This document shows, one piece after another, positions 2,560-24,808 of a stretch of 38,907 nt of DNA; position 1 is the first letter of the stretch; every line of letters starts with the position of its first letter. Source of the DNA: an uncultured virus (IMG/VR IMGVR_UViG_3300028920_000031). Its lineage: Duplodnaviria; Heunggongvirae; Uroviricota; Caudoviricetes. Both the position numbers and the translations under genes were made by a program. Under the pieces are notes generated by a model. It ran no database searches. It was not told where the DNA came from and worked only from the letters and a program-made list of their open reading frames with translations. Where the stretch lies: IMG/VR virus record IMGVR_UViG_3300028920_000031. The stretch is one strand, 5' to 3'.

Positions 2560-3120
2560 TCATTTTCGCCCCTGTGTCTCGGGGCAGAGCGTCTTGCGGT
2601 ATGCTTGCCTCAGTTTTTCGGCGTATCCGGGAGCCAGCTCGATCACGTTCTCCTGCAGAAGCAGCGGATGGTGCGAGGCGACGACCACTTGGCCTCCGGC
2701 CCTGCAGATTGCCTCGAAGCCCGAGAGGAGTTCTTCGATGCCGGCGATATCCTGTCCGCTTTCCGGCTCGTCGATCAGGACGGTGTCGCCCTTTTTGAGC
2801 GGCATGCTGAACAGGGCGGCCTTCAGGATCTCTCCGTGCGACGAGAAGCGGGCTCGGATGCGCAGCGTCATGTTCAACATGCTTCCCGGGGGGTCTGCAG
2901 AGGAGCGGGGATTCATCGTTTCGGTGTCGAAGAAACGCGTCTCTCCGCTGTCTGACCGGTTTTTCGCGCAGCGGTCGCACGAATGGATGGCCTTCAGCAT
3001 CATGCTTTTCCCCGAGCCGTTAGGCCCGCACAGCGCGGTAATGCCTTCGGGGATGGAGAAGACGGGTCCTCCCCTGACTTTGCCGGCATGGTAGGGACAG
3101 AGTTGCAGTTTTGCGATCAC
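2560..3120 (-). CDS. stand-alone ABC-type ATPase
   Basis: Walker A GPNGSGKS, signature-like SSHGE, Walker B VLIDEPE, H-switch ASHH. Confidence 0.85.
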   Translation of the reverse strand: MIAKLQLCPYHAGKVRGGPVFSIPEGITALCGPNGSGKSMMLKAIHSCDRCAKNRSDSGETRFFDTETMNPRSSADPPGSMLNMTLRIRARFSSHGEILKAALFSMPLKKGDTVLIDEPESGQDIAGIEELLSGFEAICRAGGQVVVASHHPLLLQENVIELAPGYAEKLRQAYRKTLCPETQGRK

Positions 3121-4787: not shown

Positions 4788-5792
4788 TTACAGCAGCACT
4801 CCCTGTATTCTCCGGCGGGTGACGTTGCCGATCCACTCCTGGTTCTGCGAGTACCAGTCGAGCGTGAGCCTGAGCCCCTCTTCGAACGTCACTTCGGGCT
4901 TCCAGCCGAGCTCGCCCATGATCTTGCGGGCGTCCATGGCGTAGCGGCGGTCGTGTCCGGGGCGGTCCTTGACATGCTCGATGAGGCTTTCGGGCTTGCC
5001 GAGCCAGTCGAGGATGGCCCGGATGACCTCGAGGTTGGTCTTCTCGTTGCATCCTCCGACGTTGTAGACCTCGTCGGTCCCGCCCCTGGTGAAGGCTGCC
5101 CAGATCGCCGAGCAGTGGTCGGCAACGTAGAGCCAGTCGCGGACCTGCATCCCGTCGCCGTAGACCGGCAGCGGCTTGTCGTGCCGGGCGCTACTGAACA
5201 TCAGGGGGAGCATTTTTTCGGGGAACTGGTATGGCCCGTAGTTGTTGGAGCATCTGGTGATGACGGTGTCGAGTCCGTAGGTGTGGTGGAATGCGTGGAC
5301 GAGATGGTCCGCGGCGGTCTTGCTTGCGGCGTACGGGGAGTTCGGGCAGAGCGGGGTGGTTTCTGAGAATGGCGCGTCTTCGGGTTCCAGCGAGCCGTAG
5401 ACCTCGTCGGTGGAGACCTGCAGGAACCGCTTGACTCCGGCGTCAATGGAGGCGAGGAGCAGGTTGAGGGTGCCGCCGACGTTGGTCTCGACGAAGATGT
5501 TCGGCTCCTCGATGGACCGGTCGACGTGGCTTTCGGCGGCGAAGTTGATGATGCCGCCGATGTTGTGCTTCTCGAGCAGGTCGGGAACGAGTTCGCCGTC
5601 GCGGATGTCGCCGCGGACGAATGTGTAGTTTTCGTCGTCCTCGCATCCGGCGAGGTTCATGGGGTGTCCGGCGTAAGTCAGGGCGTCGAGGTTGACGACC
5701 TTGACGTCCCTGTGTTCGGCCAGGATCATCCGGATGAAGTTGCATCCGATGAATCCGCAGCCTCCGGTTACGAGGATCGTTTCTTGGATCAT
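4788..5792 (-). CDS. rfbB: dTDP-glucose 4,6-dehydratase
   Basis: GGCGFIG Rossmann motif, DALTYAG, FAAESHVDRSI, STDEVYG, YAASK, RCSNNYGPYQFPEK, DRPGHDRRYA. Confidence 0.97.
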   Translation of the reverse strand: MIQETILVTGGCGFIGCNFIRMILAEHRDVKVVNLDALTYAGHPMNLAGCEDDENYTFVRGDIRDGELVPDLLEKHNIGGIINFAAESHVDRSIEEPNIFVETNVGGTLNLLLASIDAGVKRFLQVSTDEVYGSLEPEDAPFSETTPLCPNSPYAASKTAADHLVHAFHHTYGLDTVITRCSNNYGPYQFPEKMLPLMFSSARHDKPLPVYGDGMQVRDWLYVADHCSAIWAAFTRGGTDEVYNVGGCNEKTNLEVIRAILDWLGKPESLIEHVKDRPGHDRRYAMDARKIMGELGWKPEVTFEEGLRLTLDWYSQNQEWIGNVTRRRIQGVLL

Positions 5793-6566: not shown

Positions 6567-6809
6567 TCACTTGATTCCTATCAGATATGGTCCCGAGTCT
6601 GCGAAGTCGTCCACCATCCTGACCTGCGGGTTGACGAATTCGATGATTCCTATTCGGAAGATCGTTTCGCGTCCGTCGGGATGGAGCTTCGAGCTGTGTT
6701 CGCGGACATAGTCGCACATCTCTGCATAGTTCAGGTCGGAATGAACGGGCACGGCCTTGCAGCCGTTGCCTGTGAGAACGTACCGGAATTTTGTGCTGCA
6801 GTTCTTCAT
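6567..6809 (-). CDS. hypothetical protein (80 aa)
   Basis: ATGA overlap with the upstream stop. Confidence 0.55.
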   Translation of the reverse strand: MKNCSTKFRYVLTGNGCKAVPVHSDLNYAEMCDYVREHSSKLHPDGRETIFRIGIIEFVNPQVRMVDDFADSGPYLIGIK

Positions 6810-7264
6810 GGCAACTCTGCATTGTCGGCGATCACGTGGATTTCGAAGAGGGGCTCGACGTTGACGACGGGGCCGCAATTCCTGACGTGGAGCGGAAGCA
6901 GGGCCCTGATGGCTTCGCGGGATTTGGGCGCCATGGGGTAGTCGACGCATTCCTGGGACAGGATGCCGTCGGGGACTTGCAGGGCGCATTTCAGCAGCCT
7001 GTCGCCGTAGAGTACGGTGACGAGCCGGTTCACGTGATTATCCATTTGGTTCTCCTCGGGATTGGGCCTGCGGTTCCACCGCTTGACGTCGCCGACGTCG
7101 TAGAGCTGGGCCGCGGACTCGTAGCAGTCGTTGCCGGGATGCTCGTAGAAGGCGCCGTGGTGGTCGTCGGTGAAGATCATCTCCTTGCCGCAGAACGGGC
7201 ACGGCTTGGGCTTGGCGGCCTTCAGCGCTTCGTATTCCTCGTCGGTCATGTCGTCGTAGGCCAT
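6806..7264 (-). CDS. Lar-like zinc-finger domain protein with C-terminal extension
   Basis: KPCPFCG...HP..C...WNRR pattern typical of the Lar restriction-alleviation family. Confidence 0.7.
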   Translation of the reverse strand: MAYDDMTDEEYEALKAAKPKPCPFCGKEMIFTDDHHGAFYEHPGNDCYESAAQLYDVGDVKRWNRRPNPEENQMDNHVNRLVTVLYGDRLLKCALQVPDGILSQECVDYPMAPKSREAIRALLPLHVRNCGPVVNVEPLFEIHVIADNAELP

Positions 7265-7291: not shown

Positions 7292-7546
7292 TCATTTCTC
7301 GTCTTTCCACGGTACGTACACAACGTGTAGCTGCCTGATCTCGCATTCGGGATACAGTTTCCTGTTGATGCGTTCAGCGACTTCCCTGTTCTGGTTGCAC
7401 TGGGCGGCATGTCCGCGGTAGAACATAATCTGTTCGTCGATAACCGCCCACCACGCATCGACGACGACCCGGAAGATGCCGTTGCGGGGCGTCGTGGCGG
7501 TCTCGATGTCGACGAACTCGATGTGTTCTTTGAAGCTCGGCTTCAT
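7292..7546 (-). CDS. hypothetical protein (84 aa)
   Basis: RBS GGAGG; start trimmed to MKPSFKEH. Confidence 0.65.
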   Translation of the reverse strand: MKPSFKEHIEFVDIETATTPRNGIFRVVVDAWWAVIDEQIMFYRGHAAQCNQNREVAERINRKLYPECEIRQLHVVYVPWKDEK

Positions 7547-7547
7547 C

Positions 7548-7958
7548 CTACAGCCTCCCGACTTCTGGATGGGGCTCGCCCGTCCATTCGGTTTTTTCAG
7601 CTTGACTGGATCCATATTTTTTCTGCAGCCGGATCAGTTCCGCGCGTTCGGCCGCTTCGGTTTCGGCCTTTTTCCGGTCCTCTTCATGGCCGCAGTGGAT
7701 GGCCTGTAGCCGGGCGATGTCGATTTTTTGGACGTGCTGGGCGGGAATGGCCCAGGCTTTGGCCAGGTGGAGATGCCTGCTCGGGTCGACGGCGGACCAC
7801 TCGTTCTCCCCGTCGGGATAAGCGACGTGGTCTTCGATTTGCTTTTGTTCGCTTCTGGGGTCTTGCGGATCGGTCTCGAACCATTCGATCGCGATTCCGC
7901 AGTCGATGGAGTTCTTGCAGCCTTCGGCCTTTTGCTGCTTGACGATGAAGTACTTCAT
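7548..7958 (-). CDS. hypothetical phage-type protein (136 aa)
   Basis: RBS AAGGA; operonic packing. Confidence 0.7.
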   Translation of the reverse strand: MKYFIVKQQKAEGCKNSIDCGIAIEWFETDPQDPRSEQKQIEDHVAYPDGENEWSAVDPSRHLHLAKAWAIPAQHVQKIDIARLQAIHCGHEEDRKKAETEAAERAELIRLQKKYGSSQAEKTEWTGEPHPEVGRL

Positions 7959-7976
7959 TTTGTTCCTTTTCGGTTT

Positions 7977-8171
7977 CTATTTCAGGTCTTCGACGTCGCC
8001 CCATGTCGCGACTTCCCAGAAATAGACGTAGAACGCGCCGTTGCCGGCTTTGGGATGGGCGATGGTGAAACGCTGCCGCGACACCGTGACATACACTATC
8101 AGAACGAGGAGGGCATACATTGCTGTCAATGCGATCTTCTGTTTCGGCGACTTGGCTTTCTTCTTCATCAT
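7977..8171 (-). CDS. small membrane protein (64 aa)
   Basis: Basic N-terminus followed by a hydrophobic helix IALTAMYALLVLIVYVTV. Confidence 0.6.
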   Translation of the reverse strand: MMKKKAKSPKQKIALTAMYALLVLIVYVTVSRQRFTIAHPKAGNGAFYVYFWEVATWGDVEDLK

Positions 8172-8193
8172 TGGTTTTCCTGGTTCGCTGGAA

Positions 8194-8739
8194 TTATGCA
8201 ATGTTGTCTCGGAACCAGCGCCAATGTGCAGCCTTCCACAGCTCGGGTTCTCGAGCGTCTTCCCGCGACGGGGGGAAGACAGTATCCTCCCCGTCCATTT
8301 CAAGTTGTCGCACGTGTTTCTCGTGCTTTTCGCGCCAGTCAAGTGCCGCCGCGATTTGGCTGCTCGTAATAATCTCTGCAAGAAGTTGCATCGGTCGTCC
8401 TCCCTGTTCAAATTCAAGGCGTAAGTTGTCGGCGACGAGCCAACGGCGTTGAAACTCATCGTCAGGATATTTGCACCAGTTCGCTGGACCTAGATGCTCT
8501 TCGAGCCACGCCGTCCTAAAAGCGCCAGTCGAGTACATGCATCCCTTCGGCATCGTTTTCGGCTTGGGATCTACGGGACGCCAGATCCAGATCGGATTGA
8601 GGGGCTTGCCGCAAAGCGGGCAGGGCTTCCCCGTAGACACAAACTCGCAGGCTTGCCGATACTGCTCGGGTCTTTCATCGCGATAGGGGTCGAGTATCCA
8701 ACCGCCGCACTCGCAGCACTCGGATTCGTCCTCTTTCAT
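8194..8739 (-). CDS. Cys-rich zinc-finger hypothetical protein (181 aa)
   Basis: CCECGG and CPLCG motifs; TGATG overlap with the upstream gene. Confidence 0.7.
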   Translation of the reverse strand: MKEDESECCECGGWILDPYRDERPEQYRQACEFVSTGKPCPLCGKPLNPIWIWRPVDPKPKTMPKGCMYSTGAFRTAWLEEHLGPANWCKYPDDEFQRRWLVADNLRLEFEQGGRPMQLLAEIITSSQIAAALDWREKHEKHVRQLEMDGEDTVFPPSREDAREPELWKAAHWRWFRDNIA

Positions 8740-9059
8740 CAGTCGTCCTGCTGCTTGTTTTCGTCGGGTTCGATCCACTGAAATTCAGAGTCACCCGTAG
8801 CGGGGTTCGTTGTTATCCACTCGGCGTAGCCGCGCTCGCAGGCTTCCTTGCGGAGCCTGCGATGCGGGCCGAAAAAATTCTCGAACAGAGTTGACCCGAC
8901 GACCCCGATACAAAAACCGACAAGAAGCGCGGCCACGATCAATCCCAATGGAGAAGGCTCGGCAGGAATCCTGACCATCTCCACCTGTTCTTTCTGTGCC
9001 TCTTCAATCAGTTCCGACATACTCTTCTCTTTCGGGAAACGGCCTATTTTCTCTTCCAT
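8739..9059 (-). CDS. membrane protein (106 aa)
   Basis: Transmembrane helix LGLIVAALLVGFCIGVVG; RBS AAGGAG. Confidence 0.65.
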   Translation of the reverse strand: MEEKIGRFPKEKSMSELIEEAQKEQVEMVRIPAEPSPLGLIVAALLVGFCIGVVGSTLFENFFGPHRRLRKEACERGYAEWITTNPATGDSEFQWIEPDENKQQDD

Positions 9060-9187
9060 TAGAAATCTCCTTCAAGTCCTGTCTTGTCCCTGTGTTTACA
9101 CGTACAACAGGGGAAAGACAAGCAGTCCAGCTCCTCGTCGGCTAGCTCAAACTTGTCGTCTGAACACGTCCGTTCTTGCAATGCCAT
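9059..9187 (-). CDS. small Cys-rich protein (42 aa, not in ORF track)
   Basis: MALQERTCSDD...PCCTCKH; TAATG coupling to the next gene. Confidence 0.45.
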   Translation of the reverse strand: MALQERTCSDDKFELADEELDCLSFPCCTCKHRDKTGLEGDF

Positions 9188-9219
9188 TGCCTTGCCTTTC
9201 TGTCTTGGCCGACGAAAAT

Positions 9220-9279
9220 CGCCAACCAAGATATTCACGGTACGCGGACAAGCCGCGCCCGTGATGTCAGTCGTGGGGT
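9220..9279 (+). repeat. attC-like site (R' degenerate)
   Basis: CGCCAAC-N5-TATTCACG...CGTGATG-N6-GTGGGGT; internal stem; 60 bp. Confidence 0.65.
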
Positions 9280-9404
9280 TTGCGGAAGCGTCCGCGCAAC
9301 CACGGCACGATCAGCTTCCAAAACATCGTCGCCAACACTACCCCGTAGATCACTCCACGGACGTAGAAATAGCGAGGATCTTCCATTGTCCAATCTGTAA
9401 ACAT
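9267..9404 (-). CDS. small membrane protein (45 aa, not in ORF track)
   Basis: RBS GGAAGGA; MFTDWTMEDPRYFYVRGVIYGVVLATMFWKLIVPW...; stop lies inside the attC-like site. Confidence 0.55.
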   Translation of the reverse strand: MFTDWTMEDPRYFYVRGVIYGVVLATMFWKLIVPWLRGRFRKPHD

Positions 9405-9433
9405 GTTTTCCTTCCCGTCTTGGCAGGGCCGAA

Positions 9434-9491
9434 ACCTAACCAAGATATTGAGCGGACGTGATATGCGCGCCGCTCATGTTATTCGTTGGAT
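9434..9491 (+). repeat. attC-like site (59-base element)
   Basis: ACCTAAC-N5-TATTGAGC...GCTCATG-N6-GTTGGAT; RYYYAAC and GTTRRRY cores; extra bases in the left arm; 58 bp. Confidence 0.8.
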
Positions 9492-9712
9492 GCTCGCACA
9501 TCGTTGGATGTCAGCGATTGCAGCGTATCTACAATCACGTCGATTATCGCGTCAAACGTTTCGGCGTCCTGCTTGCAGCGAAAGTATGCGAGCGGCTCAA
9601 GCGTCGTGCCATGCATGCGGTAGAGGCACGGCGTCTTGCGATTCGGGAGTCGCGTCACGCCAAACTCAATTTTTCCGTGCGGGCCTTCGATTCTGCAGCT
9701 TTGATGTGCCAT
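9479..9712 (-). CDS. cassette-like hypothetical protein (77 aa)
   Basis: RBS AGGAGG; stop lies inside attC 9434-9491. Confidence 0.65.
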   Translation of the reverse strand: MAHQSCRIEGPHGKIEFGVTRLPNRKTPCLYRMHGTTLEPLAYFRCKQDAETFDAIIDVIVDTLQSLTSNDVRASNE

Positions 9713-9957
9713 CAGTGGTCCTCCTGCCGTAGGCGGCCGCGTGCCTCACGCAACTCTGCGTTATGAATACGATTACTGCGTTTTGCGTGTGCTCTACGCA
9801 TGTCGTCAAGGATCTCCATTGCAGCCGTGAAGCCGCCCTGAAACGTTTCAATTTCTTCCTCGTTTCTAGGTTCGTCCTCCATCAGCAATTGTATCGCCTT
9901 CTTTAGCTGTGTGTATTCGTGCTTAGTCATAACAAATTGCTCCACTCTGACGCTCAA
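9712..9957 (-). CDS. cassette-like hypothetical protein (~81 aa)
   Basis: Core bounded by GTTATGA (9760) and TCATAAC (9927); start may be the internal ATG near 9930. Confidence 0.6.
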   Translation of the reverse strand: MSVRVEQFVMTKHEYTQLKKAIQLLMEDEPRNEEEIETFQGGFTAAMEILDDMRRAHAKRSNRIHNAELREARGRLRQEDH

Positions 9958-9996
9958 TCGCTGTGCTCTTTCGCGCAGGTGGGCATGATGTTCAGC
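9927..9996 (+). repeat. attC-like site
   Basis: TCATAAC-N5-GCTCCACT...GGTGGGC-N5-GTTCAGC; 70 bp. Confidence 0.7.
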
Positions 9997-10307
9997 CTAT
10001 CCCACGCATCCAGTTCGCAGAGCATGTCCTCGCTGACAACGCGCATACCGGGGTCTTCGCAGCCCTCCACCCAATATCCGCCGTCGTGGTCGTACCGCTC
10101 GCACGAGTATTCGATGTCCAGTCGGTGAACCTTGCATTCATCCGGCAAATTGTCCGGTTCGGCCAACGTGTAGGAGTCGAACGGACCGCCGTATGTCGGG
10201 ACCATGCCGCGCTCGGGGTGTTCGATCCACATGAAGAACGGTCTCAGCGTAATGGGGTCTCTGTCGGGACACCAAGGCTGAACAACCGAATCGACGTTAT
10301 CATTCAT
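9954..10307 (-). CDS. cassette-like hypothetical protein (117 aa)
   Basis: DPITLRPFFMWIEHPERGMVPTYGGPFDSYT; start and stop both lie inside flanking attC-like sites. Confidence 0.7.
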   Translation of the reverse strand: MNDNVDSVVQPWCPDRDPITLRPFFMWIEHPERGMVPTYGGPFDSYTLAEPDNLPDECKVHRLDIEYSCERYDHDGGYWVEGCEDPGMRVVSEDMLCELDAWDRLNIMPTCAKEHSD

Positions 10308-10349
10308 TCCGCTTCGCTCCCTTCTTGAAATTCAACTTGATCGTTGGCG
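10277..10349 (+). repeat. attC-like site (L boxes degenerate)
   Basis: GCTGAAC...GTTGGCG cores; GCTTCGCT loop; R'' exactly complements the previous R' GTTCAGC. Confidence 0.5.
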
Positions 10350-10600
10350 CGACGATTCCAAAGTGCAACTGCTTCTTCGTCGGTTCGTACATCGCAGTTT
10401 GTGCCTCCCCGCTCGTCTTGCTCCATCACGAAACCGGGACAGTTTGCATCCTTGCAGGAAGGATGTCGCCATGGGTTGCGAGAGGGGAAGTCGTTCTTGA
10501 CGATCTCGGCATCTCCGCCACAGAAAGGGCACGGCAACAAATCAGTGGGGGTTGTCCCCATTCCGCCGCTTGTTTCTCGCTCTGCCATTTCAAACCTCAC
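10304..10600 (-). CDS. Lar-like zinc-finger protein in a cassette
   Basis: LLPCPFCGG...C...C...EEAVALWNRRA. Confidence 0.75.
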   Translation of the reverse strand: MRFEMAERETSGGMGTTPTDLLPCPFCGGDAEIVKNDFPSRNPWRHPSCKDANCPGFVMEQDERGGTNCDVRTDEEAVALWNRRANDQVEFQEGSEAE

Positions 10601-10614
10601 TTTTAGCGTTCGAC
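10532..10614 (+). repeat. attC-like site
   Basis: CGGCAAC-N5-AGTGGGGG...CCTCACT-N6-GTTCGAC; 83 bp. Confidence 0.6.
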
Positions 10615-10889
10615 TGTTTGATGTGGTCTTTCATTTTTCGCCTCCAGAGTCGCCGACAATCTCATCGGACGCGACGTCGTTATCGCGTCGCGGCCCATGG
10701 AGGACGGACTGACTGCACTTCTGACACGCACCGGCCAAATGGTTTGTCATCTGAAGGCACTCGTCACAAAAAAGCAACTCGTAGCGGTCGGCAATCGAGC
10801 TGCCGGCTTCAAGCGACGACTGAGGCCGTGCCGCTGCCAACTTGGATGCTGGGGCGACAGGGTGATTAGCCCTGCCGCCCGTGGTTGTG

Positions 10890-11033
10890 CTACCTGACAA
10901 TGCCAGCAGCCCGCATCGCATTGGCCGCGTTCACGGCTGCCTGCGTGAATTTCAACGCATCGTCAGCCTTGCAGTCCTTGCTGGCCGCTTTCTCCGCGTT
11001 GACCTGCACCGCTTTCTTCAGTGCGTCTTTCAT
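10890..11033 (-). CDS. small helical protein (47 aa, not in ORF track)
   Basis: RBS GGGAGGT; MKDALKKAVQVNAEKAASKDCKADDALKFTQAAVNAANAMRAAGIVR. Confidence 0.6.
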   Translation of the reverse strand: MKDALKKAVQVNAEKAASKDCKADDALKFTQAAVNAANAMRAAGIVR

Positions 11034-11091
11034 GGGGTTCTACCTCCCATTACTGCCCCGTATTGTTGCTGCGCCTGTCGGGTGGGGCATG

Positions 11092-11148
11092 CCCCAACAA
11101 GGCGCTTCAAGTGACGCCTAAAGGTGTGTTTGAGCTTGATCGTTAGCC
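11092..11148 (+). repeat. attC-like site
   Basis: CCCCAAC-N5-GCTTCAAG...TTTGAGC-N6-GTTAGCC; 57 bp. Confidence 0.75.
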
Positions 11149-11351
11149 TTCTCATTCCGGCGCATCCTCGCATTCCAGGCATCGCGCCAACCGAACGTGA
11201 TTGCGCCAACATCAATCAGCCATAGTTTGCCGATGCCGTCAACGCCAGAAATGCCCCAGCGCACTGCGTACCAGTTGCTCCGGAAAAAGCAAGGAAAGGG
11301 CCGAAAACACAACACGCAGTGGCTAACCAGCCGATTCGCTATCGCTCGCAT
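11118..11351 (-). CDS. cassette-like hypothetical protein (77 aa)
   Basis: RBS AAGGGAGA; core bounded by GTTAGCC (11142) and GGCTAAC (11321). Confidence 0.55.
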   Translation of the reverse strand: MRAIANRLVSHCVLCFRPFPCFFRSNWYAVRWGISGVDGIGKLWLIDVGAITFGWRDAWNARMRRNEKANDQAQTHL

Positions 11352-11363
11352 ATGATCTCTCCC

Positions 11364-11552
11364 TTACCATGTTCGATCGCGCAACGGCACTCGTTTCAGC
11401 CTGTTCTTTGCCTTGCGAAACTCGCGCTGCACACGGTCAAATGCCGCCTTTCCGCCTGTCGTCATGGCCTCTGCCGTTTCTGTTCGCAGGGCGTCAAGTT
11501 CTGGCATGGTTTTAGTGTTTCGGATCTTCGTTGTCATCGTCTCAATATTCAT
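11364..11552 (-). CDS. hypothetical protein (62 aa)
   Basis: Helical basic protein; operonic packing. Confidence 0.6.
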   Translation of the reverse strand: MNIETMTTKIRNTKTMPELDALRTETAEAMTTGGKAAFDRVQREFRKAKNRLKRVPLRDRTW

Positions 11553-11561
11553 GGTTGTTTC

Positions 11562-12032
11562 TCAGTTTCGCTCTTGACAGGTCGAATTGCAACCGTGCCA
11601 GTCGAGCACGCGCTTGATGCCCGGTTCTATTGCTTCGATCGTGCGACAGAGCATTTCGGCATAGATCTCGTTGTTTGTTGTCTCTATCGCATCGGCGGCC
11701 TCGAAGATTTCCTTGCGCGTCCTTCTTCTCCTGTATTCGAATTGGCGATTCATCGGGCATCTTTCGGGGACGCCCCATTTCCACGGCTCCCACGGACATG
11801 CGAGTCCGACCGAGCCGGTGAGCACTCGGGAACGGTGCTGTTCGGCCTCGCCGCGAGGGCATCGGATCCAGCCGCGGTTCTCGGCGTCCTCCTCGATCAT
11901 CCGTTTGACCGACATGAGGTTTTTGAGGGACGCCTCCGTCTCCTCGATCCGCTTCTGAAGCTTTTCGGCTAGCACGGCCAGTTCCCGGCTTTCTCGGGGT
12001 CCGGAAATATTGTCGAGGTCGGGCCGCGTCAT
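11562..12032 (-). CDS. hypothetical protein (156 aa)
   Basis: ATGA overlap; RBS AAGGA. Confidence 0.6.
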   Translation of the reverse strand: MTRPDLDNISGPRESRELAVLAEKLQKRIEETEASLKNLMSVKRMIEEDAENRGWIRCPRGEAEQHRSRVLTGSVGLACPWEPWKWGVPERCPMNRQFEYRRRRTRKEIFEAADAIETTNNEIYAEMLCRTIEAIEPGIKRVLDWHGCNSTCQERN

Positions 12033-12313
12033 TTCTGTTCCTTGAGGTACACGTATGTTTCGTCGCCGCCAACAACGACGAACCTCTTGCCGCCGTGCAT
12101 CAGGGTGTCGCCTTCGACGAGCTCGATTTCTTCGAAGTCGCCGTTCGGAGCGATGCTTTCGCATTTCGAACATGTCTTTTTCGTGGCAGGCTTGTCCCTC
12201 AGCTTTGTTCTTTTGAGCCTTACGGCTCCGCAGAGGGCGGTGAGGCCCTTGTTTTCGAACAGGTGGGAAACGCCCTTGACCGTCGCCCATTTCATGCCAT
12301 TTTTTCCGCTCAT
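12029..12313 (-). CDS. zinc-binding hypothetical protein (94 aa)
   Basis: H...ALCG...CSKC pattern. Confidence 0.65.
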   Translation of the reverse strand: MSGKNGMKWATVKGVSHLFENKGLTALCGAVRLKRTKLRDKPATKKTCSKCESIAPNGDFEEIELVEGDTLMHGGKRFVVVGGDETYVYLKEQK

Positions 12314-12355
12314 TTTTGTTTTCCTCGGGAATTTCGCGCTTTTAAGCTTCAGTTG

Positions 12356-12766
12356 TCAGCGAGAGTCGCCATTGGCATTGTTCCGCCTTGAAGTTTTCTT
12401 GTCGAACCACTTTCTGAAATCTCTTGCCGCCCGCGACATCTCTTCCGTACACCAGTCGTCGTCGAGCATCTTGAGAAATGCCGCGCTGGCCTTCTGATTC
12501 AGTCGCAGCGTATGCCCCGGGATCAGGCCGTCTTCCGGATCCCAGTTGTCCATGATCGTCCTTGCCGCCTCGAGCAGATGGCCCAGGGCTCTCGGCCCCT
12601 TGACGTCGAGGATCCATTGTGCGATTCTTGTCGAGGCCTCGGCGGCGGCCTCCTCGTCGGAGCCGCTTCCTCGCTTGAGCTCGGCGTATTTGGTATTGCC
12701 GAGGATGTGCCGGAGTTCGCGCCTGTAGTATAGTGCGGCTTCGGAAAAGCCGGGTTCCCTGTTCAT
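12356..12766 (-). CDS. hypothetical protein (136 aa)
   Basis: RBS GGAGG; ATGA overlap. Confidence 0.7.
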   Translation of the reverse strand: MNREPGFSEAALYYRRELRHILGNTKYAELKRGSGSDEEAAAEASTRIAQWILDVKGPRALGHLLEAARTIMDNWDPEDGLIPGHTLRLNQKASAAFLKMLDDDWCTEEMSRAARDFRKWFDKKTSRRNNANGDSR

Positions 12767-13149
12767 TGTTCTTCCTCCAAGCCCAGCTTGGCGGCCACTC
12801 GAGCGAGACTGTTCACAGTCTTGCGGTTCGTTTCGCCCAGGGGTCTGTCGGTCATCGAGGGGACGAAGATCTGGTCGCCTTCCGAGGGCAAATTGTCTAG
12901 GTAGTCGCCGTAGGCATAGACTTCCGCCATTTTGGCCAGCGCCTCGAAAAGCACGGCAAATATTGTTTCTTTGTCGAAGAGTTTGGCCTTGTCGAAATAG
13001 TCGGCCACGAGCTGCCTTATCTCGTCCGGCTCTCTGGTTTCGGCCAGCAGCATTTCCACGAGGTCGCGCGAGCGCCGGTCGCAGGCGTTCGCCCTGGGAT
13101 CGCCAGATGTCTTTTCGAAGCGGTAGCGGCTTTCGTCGTCTTCAGGCAT
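12763..13149 (-). CDS. hypothetical protein (128 aa)
   Basis: RBS AAGGA; operonic packing. Confidence 0.7.
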   Translation of the reverse strand: MPEDDESRYRFEKTSGDPRANACDRRSRDLVEMLLAETREPDEIRQLVADYFDKAKLFDKETIFAVLFEALAKMAEVYAYGDYLDNLPSEGDQIFVPSMTDRPLGETNRKTVNSLARVAAKLGLEEEQ

Positions 13150-13369
13150 GTCGTTTTTCCTTGTTCCATTTGAGCGGCGTCCATCTCGCGACGAACCTGT
13201 CGGCTTCCCAGGGCGACTCTAGAATGAACGCCTCGTCAACGACGACTTCGAGCCGTTCGGTCCATGTGGCGGTTTCGAGCCAGCGGACCTCGTCGCCGAT
13301 GGTCAGGGGGAGCCAGAGAAACGCAGTTCTCCGGCGGACGTCGCCCTCTTGCGGAATCTTCCGTCTCAC
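13142..13369 (-). CDS. hypothetical protein (75 aa)
   Basis: GTGA overlap; AFLWLPLTIGDEVRWLE segment. Confidence 0.6.
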   Translation of the reverse strand: MRRKIPQEGDVRRRTAFLWLPLTIGDEVRWLETATWTERLEVVVDEAFILESPWEADRFVARWTPLKWNKEKRHA

Positions 13370-13953
13370 GTGTTCGGCTCCTCTATTTCTGGCCACGCGG
13401 CTCCTCTCATGTTCTGAAGAGCCTTGAGGCAGTTGTCGGCATGTCCGTTGTCGTCCGCGGAGCCGGTGTTGGCGAGGCGCCGCTTCATCCTGTCGAAAAA
13501 CGGCTTGACGGCGTTTTCGAAGGCTTCGGCGACGTCCTTCTGCTCCAGCAGGGGCTCGCCGTGGCGGTCGCGCCTGAGCTTCCCGCTCTTTTTTAGTTGC
13601 CGCATCTGCTCGACCACGCAGTTGCGGGCCTTGCAAACGTTCGTCTGGCGGAAGCCTATGAAGTCCGGATCGTTCGTCCGCATCCTTTCCGCTTCGTCGG
13701 AAACCCGCTGAAGGAGCCTGCAGTAGCCGATCGTCGGCGGCGGGGGCTGAGGCTGTTTCGGAGGGGCCTGGGCTGCCCGCCTCCAGGCTTTGACGGCGAG
13801 CTTCTTCGAGCTTCTCTTGGGTCCGCGGGCGTCACAACTCTTGTTGACGCATACCACCCTGTACCCGTCCTTGACACGCCGTCCCGAACGGATCGACGTG
13901 AAGTCCATGTGCACGGCTTCGGCCGTATTTTTTCCGCAAAACGGGCAAATCAT
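13366..13953 (-). CDS. protein with N-terminal Lar-like zinc finger (195 aa)
   Basis: ICPFCG...VVCVNKSCDARGP...AVKAW. Confidence 0.75.
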   Translation of the reverse strand: MICPFCGKNTAEAVHMDFTSIRSGRRVKDGYRVVCVNKSCDARGPKRSSKKLAVKAWRRAAQAPPKQPQPPPPTIGYCRLLQRVSDEAERMRTNDPDFIGFRQTNVCKARNCVVEQMRQLKKSGKLRRDRHGEPLLEQKDVAEAFENAVKPFFDRMKRRLANTGSADDNGHADNCLKALQNMRGAAWPEIEEPNT

Positions 13954-17078: not shown

Positions 17079-17843
17079 TTATCTCTCCGTTGTTCTGGTG
17101 TTCCAGAGGTCGACGGCCTCCTTCATGCAGTAATTCTGGCCGCCGAGAAAGCATCCGTTGTCCGGGTGGTGAAGCCCCGGAATTCCGTATTGCATCCTGA
17201 ATATCAGTCTCGTCCTGCAAAAGGGGCAGGGTTTGGTATCCGCCAGCACATTGATGAAGAAGGCGGCCTCTTCGGCATTTTCCTTCTCCGCTTCGCCATA
17301 GTCCCGTCCGTCGTCGGGAAAGCGCGGATCTGGCGCGGGCCTTGCGAGCTGGACCAGCTTTTCTCTGCAGTTCCACTTGTCCAGCATCTCTTTCTCGATT
17401 CGTGCCGCAGCAAGCATGCACTCGGATTGATAAGGGTGCTGGAGCCATGCCCCGGCATGGTTTTCCTTAAAATCCAGGGATGCCCCGCACATCGGGCAGG
17501 GCAGGGCCGTCTTGGCTGCGGACTGCATCTCCTCCTTTCGTTTTTCGATCTTGGCCGACTCTTCCGATGACGGGATGTCTATCTCGATCCGTATTGGCGC
17601 ATCTACGATTTGTGAGAGCCTTTTTCCGACGAGCTCGGCCTCGCTCTCGAGGATGATGTGCGGCGTTTTGAGCCTATAGAGCTGCCTGAACCGCAGGATG
17701 GACTGGAGCAGGCGGAGCTCCACGGCACACACGACGGCACCGTCGGGCTGCTTGACGGTTCTCTGCGGAATGCTGAGAAGCCTTCTTGTCGCCTCTATCC
17801 AGACCTCCAGATCCTCGTCTGTTGGCGCCGCGCGCGGTTCCAT
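17079..17843 (-). CDS. protein with two Lar-like zinc-finger repeats (254 aa)
   Basis: LPCPMCG..HP..C..KWN and KPCPFCR..HPDNGC..LWNTR. Confidence 0.7.
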   Translation of the reverse strand: MEPRAAPTDEDLEVWIEATRRLLSIPQRTVKQPDGAVVCAVELRLLQSILRFRQLYRLKTPHIILESEAELVGKRLSQIVDAPIRIEIDIPSSEESAKIEKRKEEMQSAAKTALPCPMCGASLDFKENHAGAWLQHPYQSECMLAAARIEKEMLDKWNCREKLVQLARPAPDPRFPDDGRDYGEAEKENAEEAAFFINVLADTKPCPFCRTRLIFRMQYGIPGLHHPDNGCFLGGQNYCMKEAVDLWNTRTTER

Positions 17844-17845
17844 GG

Positions 17846-18790
17846 CTATTCGATCTCCCCTCTCGATTGCATGAAAGCTCCGCCGTCGGGGCTCCAAAAG
17901 CCGACCAGCCGCCAGCTCCAGCCCTCCATCTCGTTCATCGACATGAACCCGCAGCCGAAAGGGACTACATGTGCCTGATCTATTGAAACAGTTTTCTGCA
18001 CGAAGCCGTCCCGCATTTGGATGACGAACCCTCTCGACGGATGGGCCTCGCAAAATTCAGTCCAGTCCCCGTGCTCACATGGCTGAAAGCCAAGAGGCAG
18101 CTCCGAGATCTCCATTCCGAACCTGCTGATGCACCGCTCTTCGAGATAGTTGAGCATGTCCCTGGCGTTGGCAAGATAGAGTGCGAGCGGGGACAGGAAG
18201 TCGGACATGGACCTGAACTGGTCGGCGGGCACGGCGCTCTCGTTGCAGAGGAAGAGGTTGAATTCGCTGTTAAACATCCGGCATTCTTCCGCAGGAAGAT
18301 GTATTGTGTTGTTGCAGTACGTGTGCAGTGCGGCGGCGTGATTCGTCAGTGTTTCTCGCAGGCGGACCTCGTCGGAGGACGTTTCGTCACTGGAATGTTC
18401 GTTTGATGCGAATTGAGAGGGGACGTTCATGGCGGCGGCGATGCGTCTTCTGGTTTGCAACATGAAAGCCGTAAGGTCCTCTTCCGGCGTGGAGTCGCGT
18501 GCGACAATGGGGCGCTCTTCCGTCATTGCGGCATGTATGACGTCGTTGTCCGCTTTGCATCTTTCTTCTTCATAAGTGTGCAGGATTTCCGGGACGAGAG
18601 TGACGAGAGTCTCAATTAGCACTTCTCCGGCTTCGGTTAGCTCCCAGCGGAGCGTCCCGTCGTTTCCGGGACCTGTCGTCAGCAATCCGTAGCGTTTCAG
18701 ATCAAAGGATCCGACGAAAGTGTCCGGCATTTCGGCATTCTGGGAGAGCTGGAACAGGGCTTCGATATGTTTCTTGCTCAGTTTCGGCAT
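17846..18790 (-). CDS. multi-domain hypothetical protein (314 aa)
   Basis: N-terminal wHTH-like segment (WELTEAGE); start trimmed to MPKLSKK. Confidence 0.65.
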   Translation of the reverse strand: MPKLSKKHIEALFQLSQNAEMPDTFVGSFDLKRYGLLTTGPGNDGTLRWELTEAGEVLIETLVTLVPEILHTYEEERCKADNDVIHAAMTEERPIVARDSTPEEDLTAFMLQTRRRIAAAMNVPSQFASNEHSSDETSSDEVRLRETLTNHAAALHTYCNNTIHLPAEECRMFNSEFNLFLCNESAVPADQFRSMSDFLSPLALYLANARDMLNYLEERCISRFGMEISELPLGFQPCEHGDWTEFCEAHPSRGFVIQMRDGFVQKTVSIDQAHVVPFGCGFMSMNEMEGWSWRLVGFWSPDGGAFMQSRGEIE

Positions 18791-18884: not shown

Positions 18885-19127
18885 TCAGGACTGGCAGTCG
18901 GGCTTGGCGTCGACTTCCGCCCTGGTGTTCCAGGACTCGAGTGTCTCGGGCCCGTAGCCCTCGACATGCGGCCGCACGCCGCACTTCTGATTGCGGCAGG
19001 CGATGTGGATGTGGTGCCTGACGCCGTTGACGTTCCATACCTCTGGCTCCTTGCCGCAGAAGGGGCATGCCTTGGCCTTCAGGGACTTCCTGAATTTCTC
19101 GTAGGCCTTGTCGGTCATTCTTCCCAT
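18885..19127 (-). CDS. Lar-like zinc-finger protein (80 aa)
   Basis: ACPFCGK...IACRNQKCG...ESWNTRA; directly behind promoter copy 5. Confidence 0.75.
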   Translation of the reverse strand: MGRMTDKAYEKFRKSLKAKACPFCGKEPEVWNVNGVRHHIHIACRNQKCGVRPHVEGYGPETLESWNTRAEVDAKPDCQS

Positions 19128-19153
19128 GATGCGTTCCCTTTGCTGAATAGGAC

Positions 19154-19182
19154 AACTTAGCATCAAGACGATAAAAGTCAAG
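19154..19182 (-). promoter_or_regulatory. sigma70-like promoter (copy 5)
   Basis: CTTGACT-N16-TAAGTT with extended -10 TG. Confidence 0.7.
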
Positions 19183-19194
19183 TTTTTCGCTTGA

Positions 19195-20597
19195 GTATTA
19201 TTAGCCATCCCGTTCAGCGGAGGCTTACACTGAGATGCCTGTCTTGCCGATTTCTCGGTACGTTGCGTGTCATTAGCCACCCCATTCAGGGGAGGCTTAC
19301 ACGCGCTGGGCGATGCGATCTACGTCGCAGAAGTACTGTGTCATTAGCCACCCCATTCAGGGGAGGCTTACACGCATCATCCAGGAGTGCGGAGACTCCC
19401 ACAATCCCGTGTCATTAGCCACCCCATTCAGGGGAGGCTTACACGGCGCTACTGGGATCAGGATACTGCTCCCTGCCTGCGTGTCATTAGCCACCCCATT
19501 CAGGGGAGGCTTACACCTCCAGACCCTTGGCCCGTGCCCTGTATACCGTGTGTCATTAGCCACCCCATTCAGAGGAGGCCTACACTTTGCTTTCTTGTCT
19601 TCGTCTTCTTCGACGAACTGGCTGTGTCATTAGTCACCCCATTCAGAGGAGGCCTACACCGCCGCAGTCGGATTCCAGATGGGGCGATGGAACGAGGTGT
19701 CATTAGCCACCCCATTCAGAGGAGGCCTACACTCAGCGGGAGCTCGTTTCGAGATTCGTCGAAAGCGTGTGTCATTAGCCACCCCATTCAGAGGAGGCCT
19801 ACACGTGGCACCCGCATTGATGATGAAGGCGGGCATAGTGTGTCATCGGCCACCCCATTCAGAGGAGGCCTACACCTGCATCTGTCTGTCTGTTTCCCGT
19901 CTCCCCTATAGGTGTCATTAGCCACCCCATTCAGAGGAGGCCTACACGAGGGGCGAGCGAAGCGAAACCTCTCGTCTTTTCTTGTGTCATTAGCCACCCC
20001 ATTCAGAGGAGGCCTACACGTAGTGAGTACATTACATGTATCGTTGGGCCTGGATGTGTCATTAGCCACCCCATTCAGAGGAGGCCTACACGAACAACGA
20101 GCTCTCTGCGCGGCAGCACGAGAGTCTGGTGTTATTAGCCACCCCATTCAGAGGAGGCCTACACTCCTTCTCTCGTAGATTGAAAGGTAAGTTACACCAA
20201 GTGTCATTAGCCACCCCATTCAGAGGAGGCCTACACGGTCTCCCCGCCCCCAAGTTTTGCCCTTTCGAATGGGTGTCATTAGCCACCCCATTCAGAGGAG
20301 GCCTACACGCCGTGCTAGATCTGGCTACCGCCCTATTATCTATAGTGTCATTAGCCACCCCATTCAGAGGAGGCCTACACCGCGCCAGATCGCGGCGGAC
20401 CGCATGGACGTCGAAACGTGTCATTAGCCACCCCATTCAGAGGAGGCCTACACGGCGAGAGCCGCGGGGGGCAGGTGGGACGACGTCCTGTGTCATTAGC
20501 CACCCCATTCAGAGGAGGCCTACACCGGCAGGTCGGGAAAGGCGATACGGCATGCTGTCGGGTGTCATTAGCCACCCCATTCAGAGGAGGCCTACAC
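19195..20597 (-). CRISPR. CRISPR array 1: 20 repeats (36 nt, GTGTAGGCCTCCTCTGAATGGGGTGGCTAATGACAC) and 19 spacers of 33-38 nt
   Basis: Repeats read directly; degenerate trailer repeat at 19195-19230; leader side abuts the cas12 gene. Confidence 0.99.
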
Positions 20598-20796
20598 CGT
20601 CTGCGTTGTATCTATCTTGTATCTGATGCGTTGTGAGCCAGATTCCGAGCGGTTCCTGAAGTCATGTCTCAGAAACGTGCGTATTTGGTGGTCTCAAGGG
20701 GCATAAGGCGTTCAATATCCGCACCTTCGAGCGGCCATGGCTCGCCGCACTCCCATTCAGCCGCTCGATATTCAGTTGTCAAAGATCGCATCGGCA
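20598..20796 (-). promoter_or_regulatory. CRISPR leader with a boxA-like motif
   Basis: Non-coding gap between the cas12 stop and the first repeat; GATCTTTGACAACTGAATA at 20787-20769. Confidence 0.6.
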
Positions 20797-23262
20797 TCAT
20801 CGCGAATTGCGAGCGGATGCCTTTTGCTCACTGTTTTCACTGCCACAAAGACCTTTGAACGGCTTGTTCAAGACAAGCCCGTCGCGATGGCGGAAGAGCC
20901 TCTTCGACTTGCCTTCGGGGATTCTGTCGGCGAAGGCGTCCCACGGGCGCCGGTCGCCAAACAGTCTCCGGACAATTGCCCGCATGCGGTCGGACTTCGC
21001 CTGCAACCTCTCAATCAGTTTGTCGCGCTCCTCGAGGCGCTTTTTGAAATCCTGGTTGCTTTCGTCCTGCTCGCGCGTCGGCTCTTCGGGAATGTCGAAC
21101 CTGAACCCCTTGGGCTCGACGACGCCATTCCGCTTTTCGAAAGCCATGCAGAAGGGTTCGGCTTCGCGCGTGAGGGCCAGCCAAGCGATGTTCTTTGCGG
21201 CGTTCTCGTCTGCGTCGTAGTCGCGGCGGACGCCTTCGGCATCCAGGCAGCTGACGATCCTGCCCTCCCGGTCTCCGATGACGCGTTGTTCGAAGACCCA
21301 CTGGGACGTGAACTCCGGATCTACCTGGACGAAGCCTATTCCTTCGACTTTCGCCATGAGGCACACGGTGGTTGCGAGCGTGTTCGGAGCCATCAGGTCC
21401 CATATTCTGTTGTCGTCCCTGGACTGCTTGCCTCCGGACGAAGGAAGTTTCTCCATTGCTATGACGCTGGCTCCCGCATCGACTGCGGCGTCAACGACGA
21501 ACCTGGCCAGCTTCTTGCGGACGTCGTTGCGCGCGTTGTGGCGGAGGCGGTAGAGGGATTTGCAGAAGCCCTTGCGGTGCTTGGACTCGTATCCTCCGAA
21601 GTGAAGGCACTTCTTGAGAGAGAGGATGCGGTCTATCAGCCTGCACCAGACGAGTCGGTCGGACAGCGAAAGGCTGACCGTGCAGCAGGCGTGTTCGTGT
21701 TTGTAGTGATTGAACCTGGCGAATATCTCTTTCGCCCATTCTCCATATCCCGTGATTCTGGCCGCCTCCCATACCTGCAGCGGATCGGAGGGCATCTCGG
21801 CTATGGCGTCCATGTAGCGCCGGTAGGCTCCGTCGGCAGAGTCGAAACGCTCCACATCCTTTTCTTTGATCTGGTTGTGCTTGTTGCCGGGATCGGCCTT
21901 GAAGCGCCGAGTGGTCCTGATCAGCCACGCGAGGCAGGTCGCGTCCTTTCGCAATTGTCTGTACTCCTGCCCCTTTTCGGTGAGGGCGTCGCATGTCGTG
22001 TCCATGACCTGGACGTCGGCGGGAAGTCCGTTCTCAAACCGTGACGTCTTGAGTGCGGCACAGAAGGCCGCCCTGTTGATTCCGATATCTACGCCGAGCA
22101 CTACGGCGTCCCGCAGCTCGTCGAGTCCCTCGACCTCTTTCGGCCATTGGCGGGTGAAGGCAGAGTGCTTCCCCGACTTTTGCTTGCCGACGAAAATGTT
22201 CCGCATCGAGTTTTCGATGTTTATCGGCATTGCGAGGTAGAGCTCGACGGAGTTCCCTTTCCGCCGCCAGCAAAATCTCGGCTCTTTGACGACTCCCGCA
22301 CGCGGCCGCTTGCCATTTTCGTCGTAGCGGAAGAGATAGTTGTCGCCGCACTTCTCGACGGCGAAGTCGAAAAGGATATTTCTGCGCCGCCCTTTTTCGG
22401 GGCTTCCGCCCGCTGGAGTGCCGGGGTTTTTCATGCCTGCGTGCTGTCCGTCGCCGACGGAGACGTAGTAGCTTCCGGCCATTGTCGAATTTTTCAAGGT
22501 CAGCCGCAACCCTCGGCCTTCCTTTTCTAGGCAGTAGTCCTTGAGGTAGTTGGCGCCCATGCAGAGAGAATATCCGGTGCAGTCCATTTCGTCGAGGGAA
22601 AATTGGGCGTGGGATCTCATCCTTTCGAGGCGACGTTCCTGTTTCCTGAGCTTGGTCAGAGCTCTTTCATGCCTCTCGAGGCTTTTCGCATCTTCGGGCT
22701 TCACTTCGTTGACCGCCTTCTTGGCCGCCTCTTCCGCCTGAGACGTCTTTTCCTGCTGTTCGGCATATGCCTCTCGCGTCCTGTGGTCGCAGGCCACCCA
22801 GGAGCGCAGTTGCTGAACCGCCTGCTGGAGCACGTTGTAGTCCTCGCCAGAAGTCAGGCCGGTCTTGAAGGGCAGGATGCCTGCATCGCGGAGAGCCTGA
22901 ATGTGCTTGGCCGCCTTGCCGACTGCTGCGGAAGGCGGACATTTGCCGAGCATCGAGCTTTTCAGCGCTCTCGACGATCCGGATTGCCGCAACAGAGCGT
23001 CGCGAAGCCCGGCTGTTACCTCGAAGAATTTCTCTTTGTCCAAATTCGTGTTTCCGAGCTCTTCGTAAAACCCGTCGTCACGACCTTCATATCCCGACAG
23101 GAACAGGCGCAAGAGCCATTTGTATGGCTCCAGATGGAGCTCGTACCGCTTAATGAGCTCCCGTTTTTCCTGGTCCGTCAGAATGACCTTGCCGTCGACA
23201 GCCTTGAGGCACTGTTCCTTGACGAGGTTGCCGACGATCCTTCTTTTCGACTGAAATGCCAT
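20797..23262 (-). CDS. cas12: compact type V CRISPR effector (Cas12-like, 821 aa)
   Basis: RuvC-I VLGVDIG (D392), RuvC-II VIAMEKL (E604), VDPEFTSQ, RuvC-III DADENAAKNIA (D685); adjacent to a CRISPR array; RBS AAAGGAG. Confidence 0.93.
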   Translation of the reverse strand: MAFQSKRRIVGNLVKEQCLKAVDGKVILTDQEKRELIKRYELHLEPYKWLLRLFLSGYEGRDDGFYEELGNTNLDKEKFFEVTAGLRDALLRQSGSSRALKSSMLGKCPPSAAVGKAAKHIQALRDAGILPFKTGLTSGEDYNVLQQAVQQLRSWVACDHRTREAYAEQQEKTSQAEEAAKKAVNEVKPEDAKSLERHERALTKLRKQERRLERMRSHAQFSLDEMDCTGYSLCMGANYLKDYCLEKEGRGLRLTLKNSTMAGSYYVSVGDGQHAGMKNPGTPAGGSPEKGRRRNILFDFAVEKCGDNYLFRYDENGKRPRAGVVKEPRFCWRRKGNSVELYLAMPINIENSMRNIFVGKQKSGKHSAFTRQWPKEVEGLDELRDAVVLGVDIGINRAAFCAALKTSRFENGLPADVQVMDTTCDALTEKGQEYRQLRKDATCLAWLIRTTRRFKADPGNKHNQIKEKDVERFDSADGAYRRYMDAIAEMPSDPLQVWEAARITGYGEWAKEIFARFNHYKHEHACCTVSLSLSDRLVWCRLIDRILSLKKCLHFGGYESKHRKGFCKSLYRLRHNARNDVRKKLARFVVDAAVDAGASVIAMEKLPSSGGKQSRDDNRIWDLMAPNTLATTVCLMAKVEGIGFVQVDPEFTSQWVFEQRVIGDREGRIVSCLDAEGVRRDYDADENAAKNIAWLALTREAEPFCMAFEKRNGVVEPKGFRFDIPEEPTREQDESNQDFKKRLEERDKLIERLQAKSDRMRAIVRRLFGDRRPWDAFADRIPEGKSKRLFRHRDGLVLNKPFKGLCGSENSEQKASARNSR

Positions 23263-24329: not shown

Positions 24330-24661
24330 GATTGGCTTCCTTTTGCTTCATATTGTTCGGCAAGTCGGTATTCGCATTTTTCGTCGCATTCTGCGGCTCC
24401 GGGTCCTCCCGGATCTCCGTAATCTATGGCTCCGCACCTTTGGCAGGTAAATACGGTTTGGAAACACATGGGGTCGAGATTCTTCGGACATGGCCGCCCG
24501 CCGCAGGAAATCCAGTCGTGTCCGAGATGCTTGCAGGTCTGACGGAACTGAATGACGATTCCGACAGTCGGCAGTGGAAGAATATAAAGCCGCCTGTATC
24601 GGCGGTCCCAGTATGCACCGACCCACAGGTCGTACCATGCGAACAGGAATTTTATTCTCAT
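24326..24661 (-). CDS. hypothetical phage-type protein (111 aa)
   Basis: FAWYDLWVGAYWD segment and Cys-rich C-terminus. Confidence 0.65.
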   Translation of the reverse strand: MRIKFLFAWYDLWVGAYWDRRYRRLYILPLPTVGIVIQFRQTCKHLGHDWISCGGRPCPKNLDPMCFQTVFTCQRCGAIDYGDPGGPGAAECDEKCEYRLAEQYEAKGSQS

Positions 24662-24808
24662 TGCGTCGACAATGCGTGTGATCTGTTGTCCAGTTGTAAT
24701 CGCATTCAGAAACTTAGCTCCTGTCCTATGAAATTCAAGCCGATTTCCCGAAAAAAGGGGATTTTGGCGAATACATGGAAAAAATGGAGAGACAAGGAGA
24801 TCGTCCCC

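Follow-up and report, generated by a model that had tools for sequence, protein, structure and literature searches.

A probable integrase-less cluster of attC-like sites with antisense cargo in an uncultured phage-like element

We analysed a stretch of 38,907 nt from an uncultured virus (IMG/VR IMGVR_UViG_3300028920_000031, Caudoviricetes), here called the window, and use its positions as coordinates throughout. The region 9219-11148, which lies among accessory genes of this phage-like element, is likely an integrase-less attC cluster (CALIN). A CALIN, following the IntegronFinder definition as used by Qi et al. 2023 (PMC9892861), comprises at least two co-oriented attC sites close together, with no integron integrase nearby. 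Using home-made models, we found five plus-strand sites within 1.93 kb and no tyrosine recombinase in 38.9 kb. Beyond this, the genes between the sites run antisense to them, and one gene recurs beside different neighbours in other contigs. Integron recombination sites would thus organise accessory, likely anti-restriction, genes of an uncultured phage-like element.

attC-like sites and the circular-cassette signature

A first-pass annotation, made from the letters alone, had described six imperfect palindromes in this region as attC-like. All six stretches and their 7-mers were recovered at their positions and five score as attC, while the one at 10277 is degenerate and only two of the six fold convincingly (see below). 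The sites share with canonical integron arrays (for example that of genome G002, locus L069) the order R''-spacer-L''...L'-spacer-R' and cassettes of a few hundred bases:

9219..9279, plus strand: attC-like site 1; R'' CGCCAAC, R' degenerate with GTG instead of GTT
9433..9491, plus strand: attC-like site 2; R'' ACCTAAC, R' GTTGGAT (G at 9485)
9926..9996, plus strand: attC-like site 3; R'' TCATAAC, R' GTTCAGC (G at 9990)
10276..10349, plus strand: degenerate attC-like site 4; R'' GCTGAAC, R' GTTGGCG (G at 10343)
10531..10614, plus strand: attC-like site 5; R'' CGGCAAC, R' GTTCGAC (G at 10608)
11091..11148, plus strand: attC-like site 6; R'' CCCCAAC, R' GTTAGCC (G at 11142), central stem decayed

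The outer triplets, AAC in R'' and GTT in R', are present in five of the six sites, the exception being site 1 (GTG). Beyond the triplets, the fit to RYYYAAC/GTTRRRY is only loose. Spacers of 5 nt and 6 nt and extra bases in the left arm, both claimed in the first pass, are apparent when sites 1, 2, 3 and 6 are aligned to the models. At a distance of 18 nt, the direct repeat TCGTTGGATG (9483-9492 and 9501-9510) gives site 2 a second copy of its R' box.

Three covariance models were employed. R1 was built from the 12 attC sites of a textbook array beside the integron integrase of genome G002, which was reached via a relative of a 117-aa protein encoded between sites 3 and 4 of the window. The G002 integrase scored 484.7 bits against TIGR02249 (cut-off 265), and integrases above the same cut-off occurred in 148 of 401 sampled genomes of its class, a tally that includes four genomes flagged as unpublished. 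Since RNAalifold alone gave only the central stem of real attC sites, the consensus structure of R1 was entered by hand. R1 located 113 sites, on a single strand per array, in 21 integron arrays next to integrases of other genomes, and these 113 sites of genuine integron arrays were used to build R2. R3 was built only from 14 sites of contigs related to the window and contains none of the window's own sites.

Applied unfiltered to both strands of the entire window at E ≤ 10, R2 gave six matches, five of which are sites of the first-pass annotation, all on the plus strand and within 9219-11148. R3 returned the same five at 21.7-32.6 bits, with its next-best match at 13.3 bits. Site 6 (R2 33.3 bits, E 7e-6; R1 24.6; R3 27.0), site 2 (R2 31.1; R3 32.0; R1 8.7) and site 3 (R2 18.1, matched over 9926-9997; R3 21.7) scored with R2 above the background maximum of 15.1 bits in about 1.6 Mb. 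For sites 1 and 5, R3 gave 32.6 and 25.0 bits, and R2 11.6 and 10.1 bits with matches at 9219-9278 and 10532-10614. Site 4 reached 6.8 bits at most (R3); its counterpart in the related contig L036 (5039-5093) scores 17.1 bits with R2. The attC designation of five of the six sites is thereby upheld by R2, in agreement with R1 (clearest for site 6) and R3. Three further half or degenerate sites proposed in the first pass did not survive: 9760 and 11321 yielded no model match, and the 3.7 bits found at about 10651 are noise.

The R2 background amounted to two matches (the best at 15.1 bits) in 627,567 bases of other loci and none in viral contigs totalling 972,370 bases. An unfiltered search of about 58 kb from distant relatives yielded a single R2 match above 10 bits (13.3). 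Two phages served as positive controls: in Tetrasphaera phage TJE1 R2 detected three sites and in Pseudoalteromonas phage PH101 two, all scoring 33.6-36.3 bits, similar to the 31.1-33.3 bits of the best window sites. On phage P12002L it found nothing. These arrays are CALINs of Qi et al. 2023 (PMC9892861), according to whom IntI1 recombined five of six phage sites tested; two sites each from TJE1 and PH101 were among those tested, and the failure concerned P12002L.

Two neighbouring sites were taken to show the circular-cassette signature if the four distal R'' bases complement the R' of the site before, for which the chance is 1/256 per pair. It was exact in 6 of 14 neighbouring model-defined pairs (L035 2/2, L036 3/5, L039 1/4, window 0/3), compared with 59 of 84 neighbouring pairs in control integron arrays. 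The window contributes 0/3 because the site at 10277 is not a model match. The pairs quoted in the first pass are nevertheless real: the 7-mers at 9760/9927, 9990/10277 and 11142/11321 are exactly complementary, and 10343/10532 has one mismatch. GCTGAAC, the R'' of site 4, exactly complements the R' of site 3. Likewise, GTTATGA at 9760 exactly complements the R'' of site 3 and GGCTAAC at 11321 the R' of site 6, yet neither position matches a model. Taken alone, the three exact pairs are not significant (at least three occur in 14% of 1000 dinucleotide shuffles, mean 1.31), and GTT was not unusual among trinucleotides in the window test. We count the signature as present in the window as well, on two exact pairs (9990/10277 and 11142/11321) and the pair with one mismatch.

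That the window lacks intI was borne out over its 38.9 kb by family scans and by an integrase profile. Pfam and PHROGs scans of 52 open reading frames (ORFs) revealed no integrase. The IntI-derived profile, made from 30 integron integrase frames (one from the unpublished genome G041), matched none of 797 six-frame fragments from the window and the related L035, L036, L037, L039 and L127; in control loci, with E values from 1e-8 to 1e-12, it picks up Xer-type recombinases. No tyrosine recombinase was found in the complete 46,063-bp viral genome to which L127 belongs.

Cassette mobility and antisense cargo

The array holds a tight row of small minus-strand genes at 9059-9238, 9267-9407, 9479-9712, 9712-9957, 9954-10307, 10304-10600, 10631-10921, 10890-11033 and 11118-11351. 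Between and beside the sites lie:

9267..9407, minus strand: ORF of 46 aa from ATG between sites 1 and 2, from the ORF list and the six-frame codon model; no family match
9479..9957, minus strand: two overlapping small ORFs (9479-9712, 9712-9957) between sites 2 and 3; no family match
9954..10307, minus strand: 117-aa gene with no named function, cargo of cassette 9991-10343
10304..10600, minus strand: Lar-like restriction-alleviation gene, cargo of cassette 10344-10608
10631..11033, minus strand: two small ORFs (10631-10921, 10890-11033) between sites 5 and 6; no family match; the codon model chose only 10890-11033
11118..11351, minus strand: 77-aa ORF right of site 6, which contains the final codons and stop of this ORF

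Copies of the 117-aa gene were detected in L035 (91% nucleotide identity), in the overlapping contigs L036 and L037 (77%) and, over half of the gene, in L039 (95%). None of these contigs shares any other window gene, and the same holds for viral-contig relatives of the 117-aa protein and of the window's methylase. Similarity is confined to 9990-10330 with L035, 9990-10283 with L036/L037 and 10159-10330 with L039. With L035 and L036/L037 the homologous stretch has its left border precisely at 9990, the G of the site 3 R' box, and the sequence on the other side differs per contig. L035 and L039 are similar as far as the AAC/GTT of site 4 and unrelated after it. Altogether, the cassette of the 117-aa gene was found in at least four different contexts with breakpoints at R' GTT. 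The same unit thus recurs with different neighbours, as the first-pass annotation had led one to expect, and metagenome contigs display one cassette beside different neighbours in nature.

In addition, contigs (not reads) of four public runs were aligned to 7500-13000. Contigs from X1, X3 and X4 track the window to 10345, the end of the site 4 GTT, and then follow two different continuations. The contigs of X1, possibly the source run, break at 9240-9262, 10216-10245, 10302-10309 and 11019-11078, three of the four being at or beside sites 1, 4 and 6, and summed contig depth was highest in the bins that hold these same three sites. No joints were reported among the aligned contigs, which as contigs only are uninformative on excision.

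The related contigs carry sites of the same kind. L035, L036/L037 and L039 gave 14 R2 matches at E ≤ 1, every one antisense to the genes. L127, which comes from a terminally repetitive viral genome of 46,063 bp rated complete, gave five R3 matches (17.5-37.3 bits), and its array lies near genes for an ERF annealing protein and a PD-(D/E)XK nuclease. A pattern scan with CCAACAAATCACTKCA returned 14 loci, of which only L127 holds a real array. A scan with CNAACCAAGATATTSA gave more than 117 single matches, and none of the 80 loci searched had an R2 match.

Orientation of the cargo was assessed with a six-frame codon model, after a score that compared sense and antisense codons had been discarded for choosing wrong frames. 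For the 117-aa gene the minus strand is beyond doubt: substitutions relative to L036 fall 16/7/45 by codon position, and the changed codons comprise 38 synonymous and 15 non-synonymous in the minus frame versus 6 and 47 in the plus frame. Of the 36 genes predicted across five arrays, 35 run antisense to the sites, whereas the longest ORF of control integron cassettes is in sense with its site in 79 of 84. The canonical layout, with a promoterless ORF in sense and attC at its 3' end, does not hold for arrays of the window type. This antisense orientation goes beyond what had been observed in the first pass, and it makes the attC bottom strand the sense strand of the genes.

The sites flank their genes on the 5' side. 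In the window, five of six sites contain the stop of the upstream gene and four of six the start of the next one, often with its ribosome-binding site (RBS). ORF 9267-9407 ends and ORF 9059-9238 begins within site 1, site 2 encloses the stop of ORF 9479-9712, and site 4 carries the RBS and start of the 117-aa gene together with the tail and stop of the Lar-like gene. Because the stops lie inside the sites, C-terminal tails vary with the neighbour, as seen when the 117-aa protein of the window is compared with those of L035 and L036. On the gene strand, the arriving ORF takes the R' AAC as an in-frame Asn codon at 18 of the 25 sites pooled from the window, L035, L036, L039 and L127; at two L127 sites this AAC overlaps a TAA stop. 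As AAC is in frame at a baseline of 0.53 in window genes, this preference is marginal (P=0.045).

The 10-mer CTTGATCGTT ends both site 4 and site 6 (10336-10345 and 11135-11144) and is also common to the site at 1688-1738 of L036. On the gene strand CTTGATCGTT reads ...A-N-D-Q... at the C-terminus of the upstream protein in both places, and the 77-aa protein has a tail similar to the Lar-like C-terminus. Some sites of the relatives are long (78-125 nt: L127 4440-4564, 4717-4838 and 4995-5104; L035 682-784; L036 2282-2359); in these, the variable loop of the attC-like hairpin takes in the RBS of the next gene together with its start codon and first codons. Such a layout could couple folding to translation.

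These data fit a scheme in which five recognisable sites and one degenerate site would divide the region into cassettes of 265-534 bp (R' G at 9485, 9990, 10343, 10608 and 11142). The cassettes would have been assembled via circular intermediates, the G|TT of the R' box being the point of recombination and the integron integrase being provided in trans by a host. With cargo antisense to the attC top strand and co-directional with the element's other genes, each site would come to lie at a gene junction. The first-pass proposal that attC cassettes are shuffled through a host or distant integrase is supported by the attC scores, the signature in the relatives and the contexts of the 117-aa gene; IntI as the enzyme, and continued activity of any site, we infer from the sequences.

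Alternative explanations and known systems

Several observations weigh against the attC reading. When single-strand folds were compared with shuffles, sites 9220 and 9434 were clearly better (z about -2.1 to -2.7) and 9927 was borderline (z about -1.5), but sites 4, 5 and 6 (10277, 10532 and 11092) folded like shuffles. On the bottom strand, z was -2.27 for site 1, -2.2 for site 2, -1.66 for site 3 and -0.85 for site 6, and site 5 was no better than shuffles. The bottom-strand medians of -1.25 (window) and -1.24 (relatives) contrast with -3.79 for 12 real attC sites, and z<-2 was reached by 2/6 window sites and 6/19 related sites versus 11/12 real ones. Site 1 is without the R' GTT and site 4 is barely detectable. 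Besides the orientation of the cargo in the 35 genes described above, breakpoints lie off G|TT at 10159, 10275-10280, 10302 and 10325-10330, so other recombination acts at the locus too. The covariance models are home-made rather than IntegronFinder's own, with rough E-values. The isolated phages MT188704 and OL955261, which share an 812-aa protein with the window, gave no R2 match.

Part of the array looks decayed. Site 6 matches the L036 site at 1688-1738 at both ends, and the stem that is intact in L036 is lost in the window. On the 14 sites from outside the window, the L''/L' stem covaries, with 82.3% of cells paired versus 62.6% in shuffles and 34-36% in slid controls, in an alignment that was fitted to the model and is hence biased towards that structure. 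Cells changed on both sides numbered 54 versus 24.6 in shuffles, a count reached by 0 of 500 shuffles.

Three other explanations were weighed. It is improbable that the sites are conserved hairpins at gene junctions, acting as terminators, promoters or elements of translational coupling, at which genes are swapped by homologous or microhomology recombination of the phage, as in modular phage mosaicism, and which resemble attC by convergence. Such hairpins would account for sites that straddle stop and start codons, for the weak folding, for the breakpoints off G|TT listed above and for an L127 array that adjoins an annealing protein and a nuclease, and the promoter-stem-loop cassette model of T4 offers a parallel. 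However, a model trained only on attC sites of bacterial integrons matches the sites and almost nothing else, reproducing spacers and extra left-arm bases, and R'' pairs with the R' of the previous site and not with its own. Such pairing can arise only if exchange takes place at G|TT via a circle; recombination at other points of the repeat would leave no such pattern.

Less probable still is a recombinase other than an integron integrase, such as a Xer-type enzyme of the host or an unknown one of the phage, acting on folded sites with a similar shape. Classical attC is matched in the AAC...GTT triplets, the spacers and the stem motif, and PH101, whose sites are reported in PMC9892861 to be recombined by IntI1, shares the antisense layout. 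Such an enzyme would nevertheless agree with the lack of IntI in the window and in the complete related viral genome, with cargo oriented in reverse of canonical cassettes and with the loose fit of R''/R' past AAC/GTT. Chance palindromes with AAC/GTT in GC-rich coding DNA can practically be dismissed: five of the six R2 matches fall within 2 kb on one strand, with almost no background in 1.6 Mb, and the same type of site occurs, with covariation, in five independent contigs. This is so even though the exact 7-mer pairs are not significant alone and four of six sites fold like shuffles.

Taken as a CALIN, the array adds to the few reported from phages (17 in 10,705 phage genomes), and integrase-less phage arrays as such are already known (Qi et al. 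2023, PMC9892861). As described there, phage CALINs resemble the window in having at least two co-oriented attC sites between small accessory genes, no intI, and cargo of anti-restriction type, namely methyltransferases there and a Lar-like protein here (PMC9892861). The antisense layout recurs in PH101 (NC_029094 76228-78355, L138), with two attC on the plus strand and all annotated surrounding genes on the minus strand. In TJE1, by contrast, the genes are in sense with attC at their 3' end. Unlike in the phage CALINs, the window sites fold less well, two are degenerate, and ORFs run across cassette borders. Canonical integron arrays share the complementarity of R'' to the previous R' (59/84 in controls, 6/14 in phage-type pairs). 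The window differs from them in lacking intI and attI, in its weaker hairpins, in its antisense cargo (35/36 versus 5/84 in controls) and in genes that overlap and are translationally coupled across cassette borders.

Phage early regions show modular mosaicism, an example being the mobile promoter-stem-loop cassettes of T4-type phages. As in such early regions, small accessory genes would be exchanged as units at conserved junctions in hyperplastic regions; the junctions of the window differ in matching integron attC and the G|TT signature of circular cassettes.

The antisense layout is consistent and so far unremarked; the words 'antisense' and 'opposite' do not occur in the accessible text of PMC9892861, whose supplementary tables may describe orientation. 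Antisense cassettes would be silent in a bacterial integron platform, yet expressed in the phage, so the layout bears on gene exchange between phages and integrons. We tentatively suggest that some phages may keep a pool of 'inverted' integron cassettes of their own, in which a site 5' of the gene supplies its RBS and start and the stop of any gene that comes to lie upstream. Counter-defence genes (Lar-like, methyltransferases) might then be reshuffled among phages by host integron integrases without disturbing the translation of operons. The antisense layout in five contigs and in phage PH101, the stops and starts inside the sites and the weak phase preference are in line with this idea. If true, such a pool would be the phage counterpart, in mirror image, of the defence cassettes that bacterial integrons carry.

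Genomic context of the array

The Lar-like gene within the array (10304-10600) matched PF14354 with 32.2 bits (cut-off 28.6) and phrog_599 with E 3.2e-10; against TIGR03655 it stayed under the cut-off (30.5 bits versus 39.6). NCBIfam, Pfam and PHROGs gave no name to any other array cargo. Rfam at gathering thresholds had no match in the window, the presence of an attC family in Rfam being unchecked. A blastn search of 8000-13000 against a phage collection yielded no match.

The window probably belongs to a large phage. Homologues of its 812-aa protein, 41-43% identical, were found in two isolated Caudoviricetes of 131 and 150 kb, and for two large window proteins the nearest clusters in a protein atlas are viral, the atlas being uninformative for a 447-aa protein. 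As no structural gene was recognised in the window, 'phage' is likely rather than proven.

In total the window encodes five Lar-like domains and a C5 methylase. The Lar-like ORFs (PF14354 and/or phrog_599) are located at 6806-7264, 10304-10600, 13366-13953, 17079-18053 and 18885-19280, one of the five being inside the attC array. Other accessory genes encode a radical SAM/SPASM protein (24311-25738, plus strand) and a GDP-mannose-dehydratase-like epimerase (4788-5792, minus strand), and a fragment of an AAA_21/ABC-type ATPase lies among them (2560-3120, minus strand).

The window also contains a CRISPR array (19196-20601) with about 20 copies of a repeat of about 36 nt at a period of about 72 nt, the first repeats differing from later ones at two positions. 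Directly adjoining it, an 821-aa ORF (20797-23262, minus strand) shows a Cas12f1-like TNB domain (E 2.1e-5), and its nearest atlas clusters are viral, TnpB or C2c1-RuvC-like. Array and ORF together have the look of a compact type V CRISPR-Cas locus with a single effector, carried by the element that also holds the attC-like sites.

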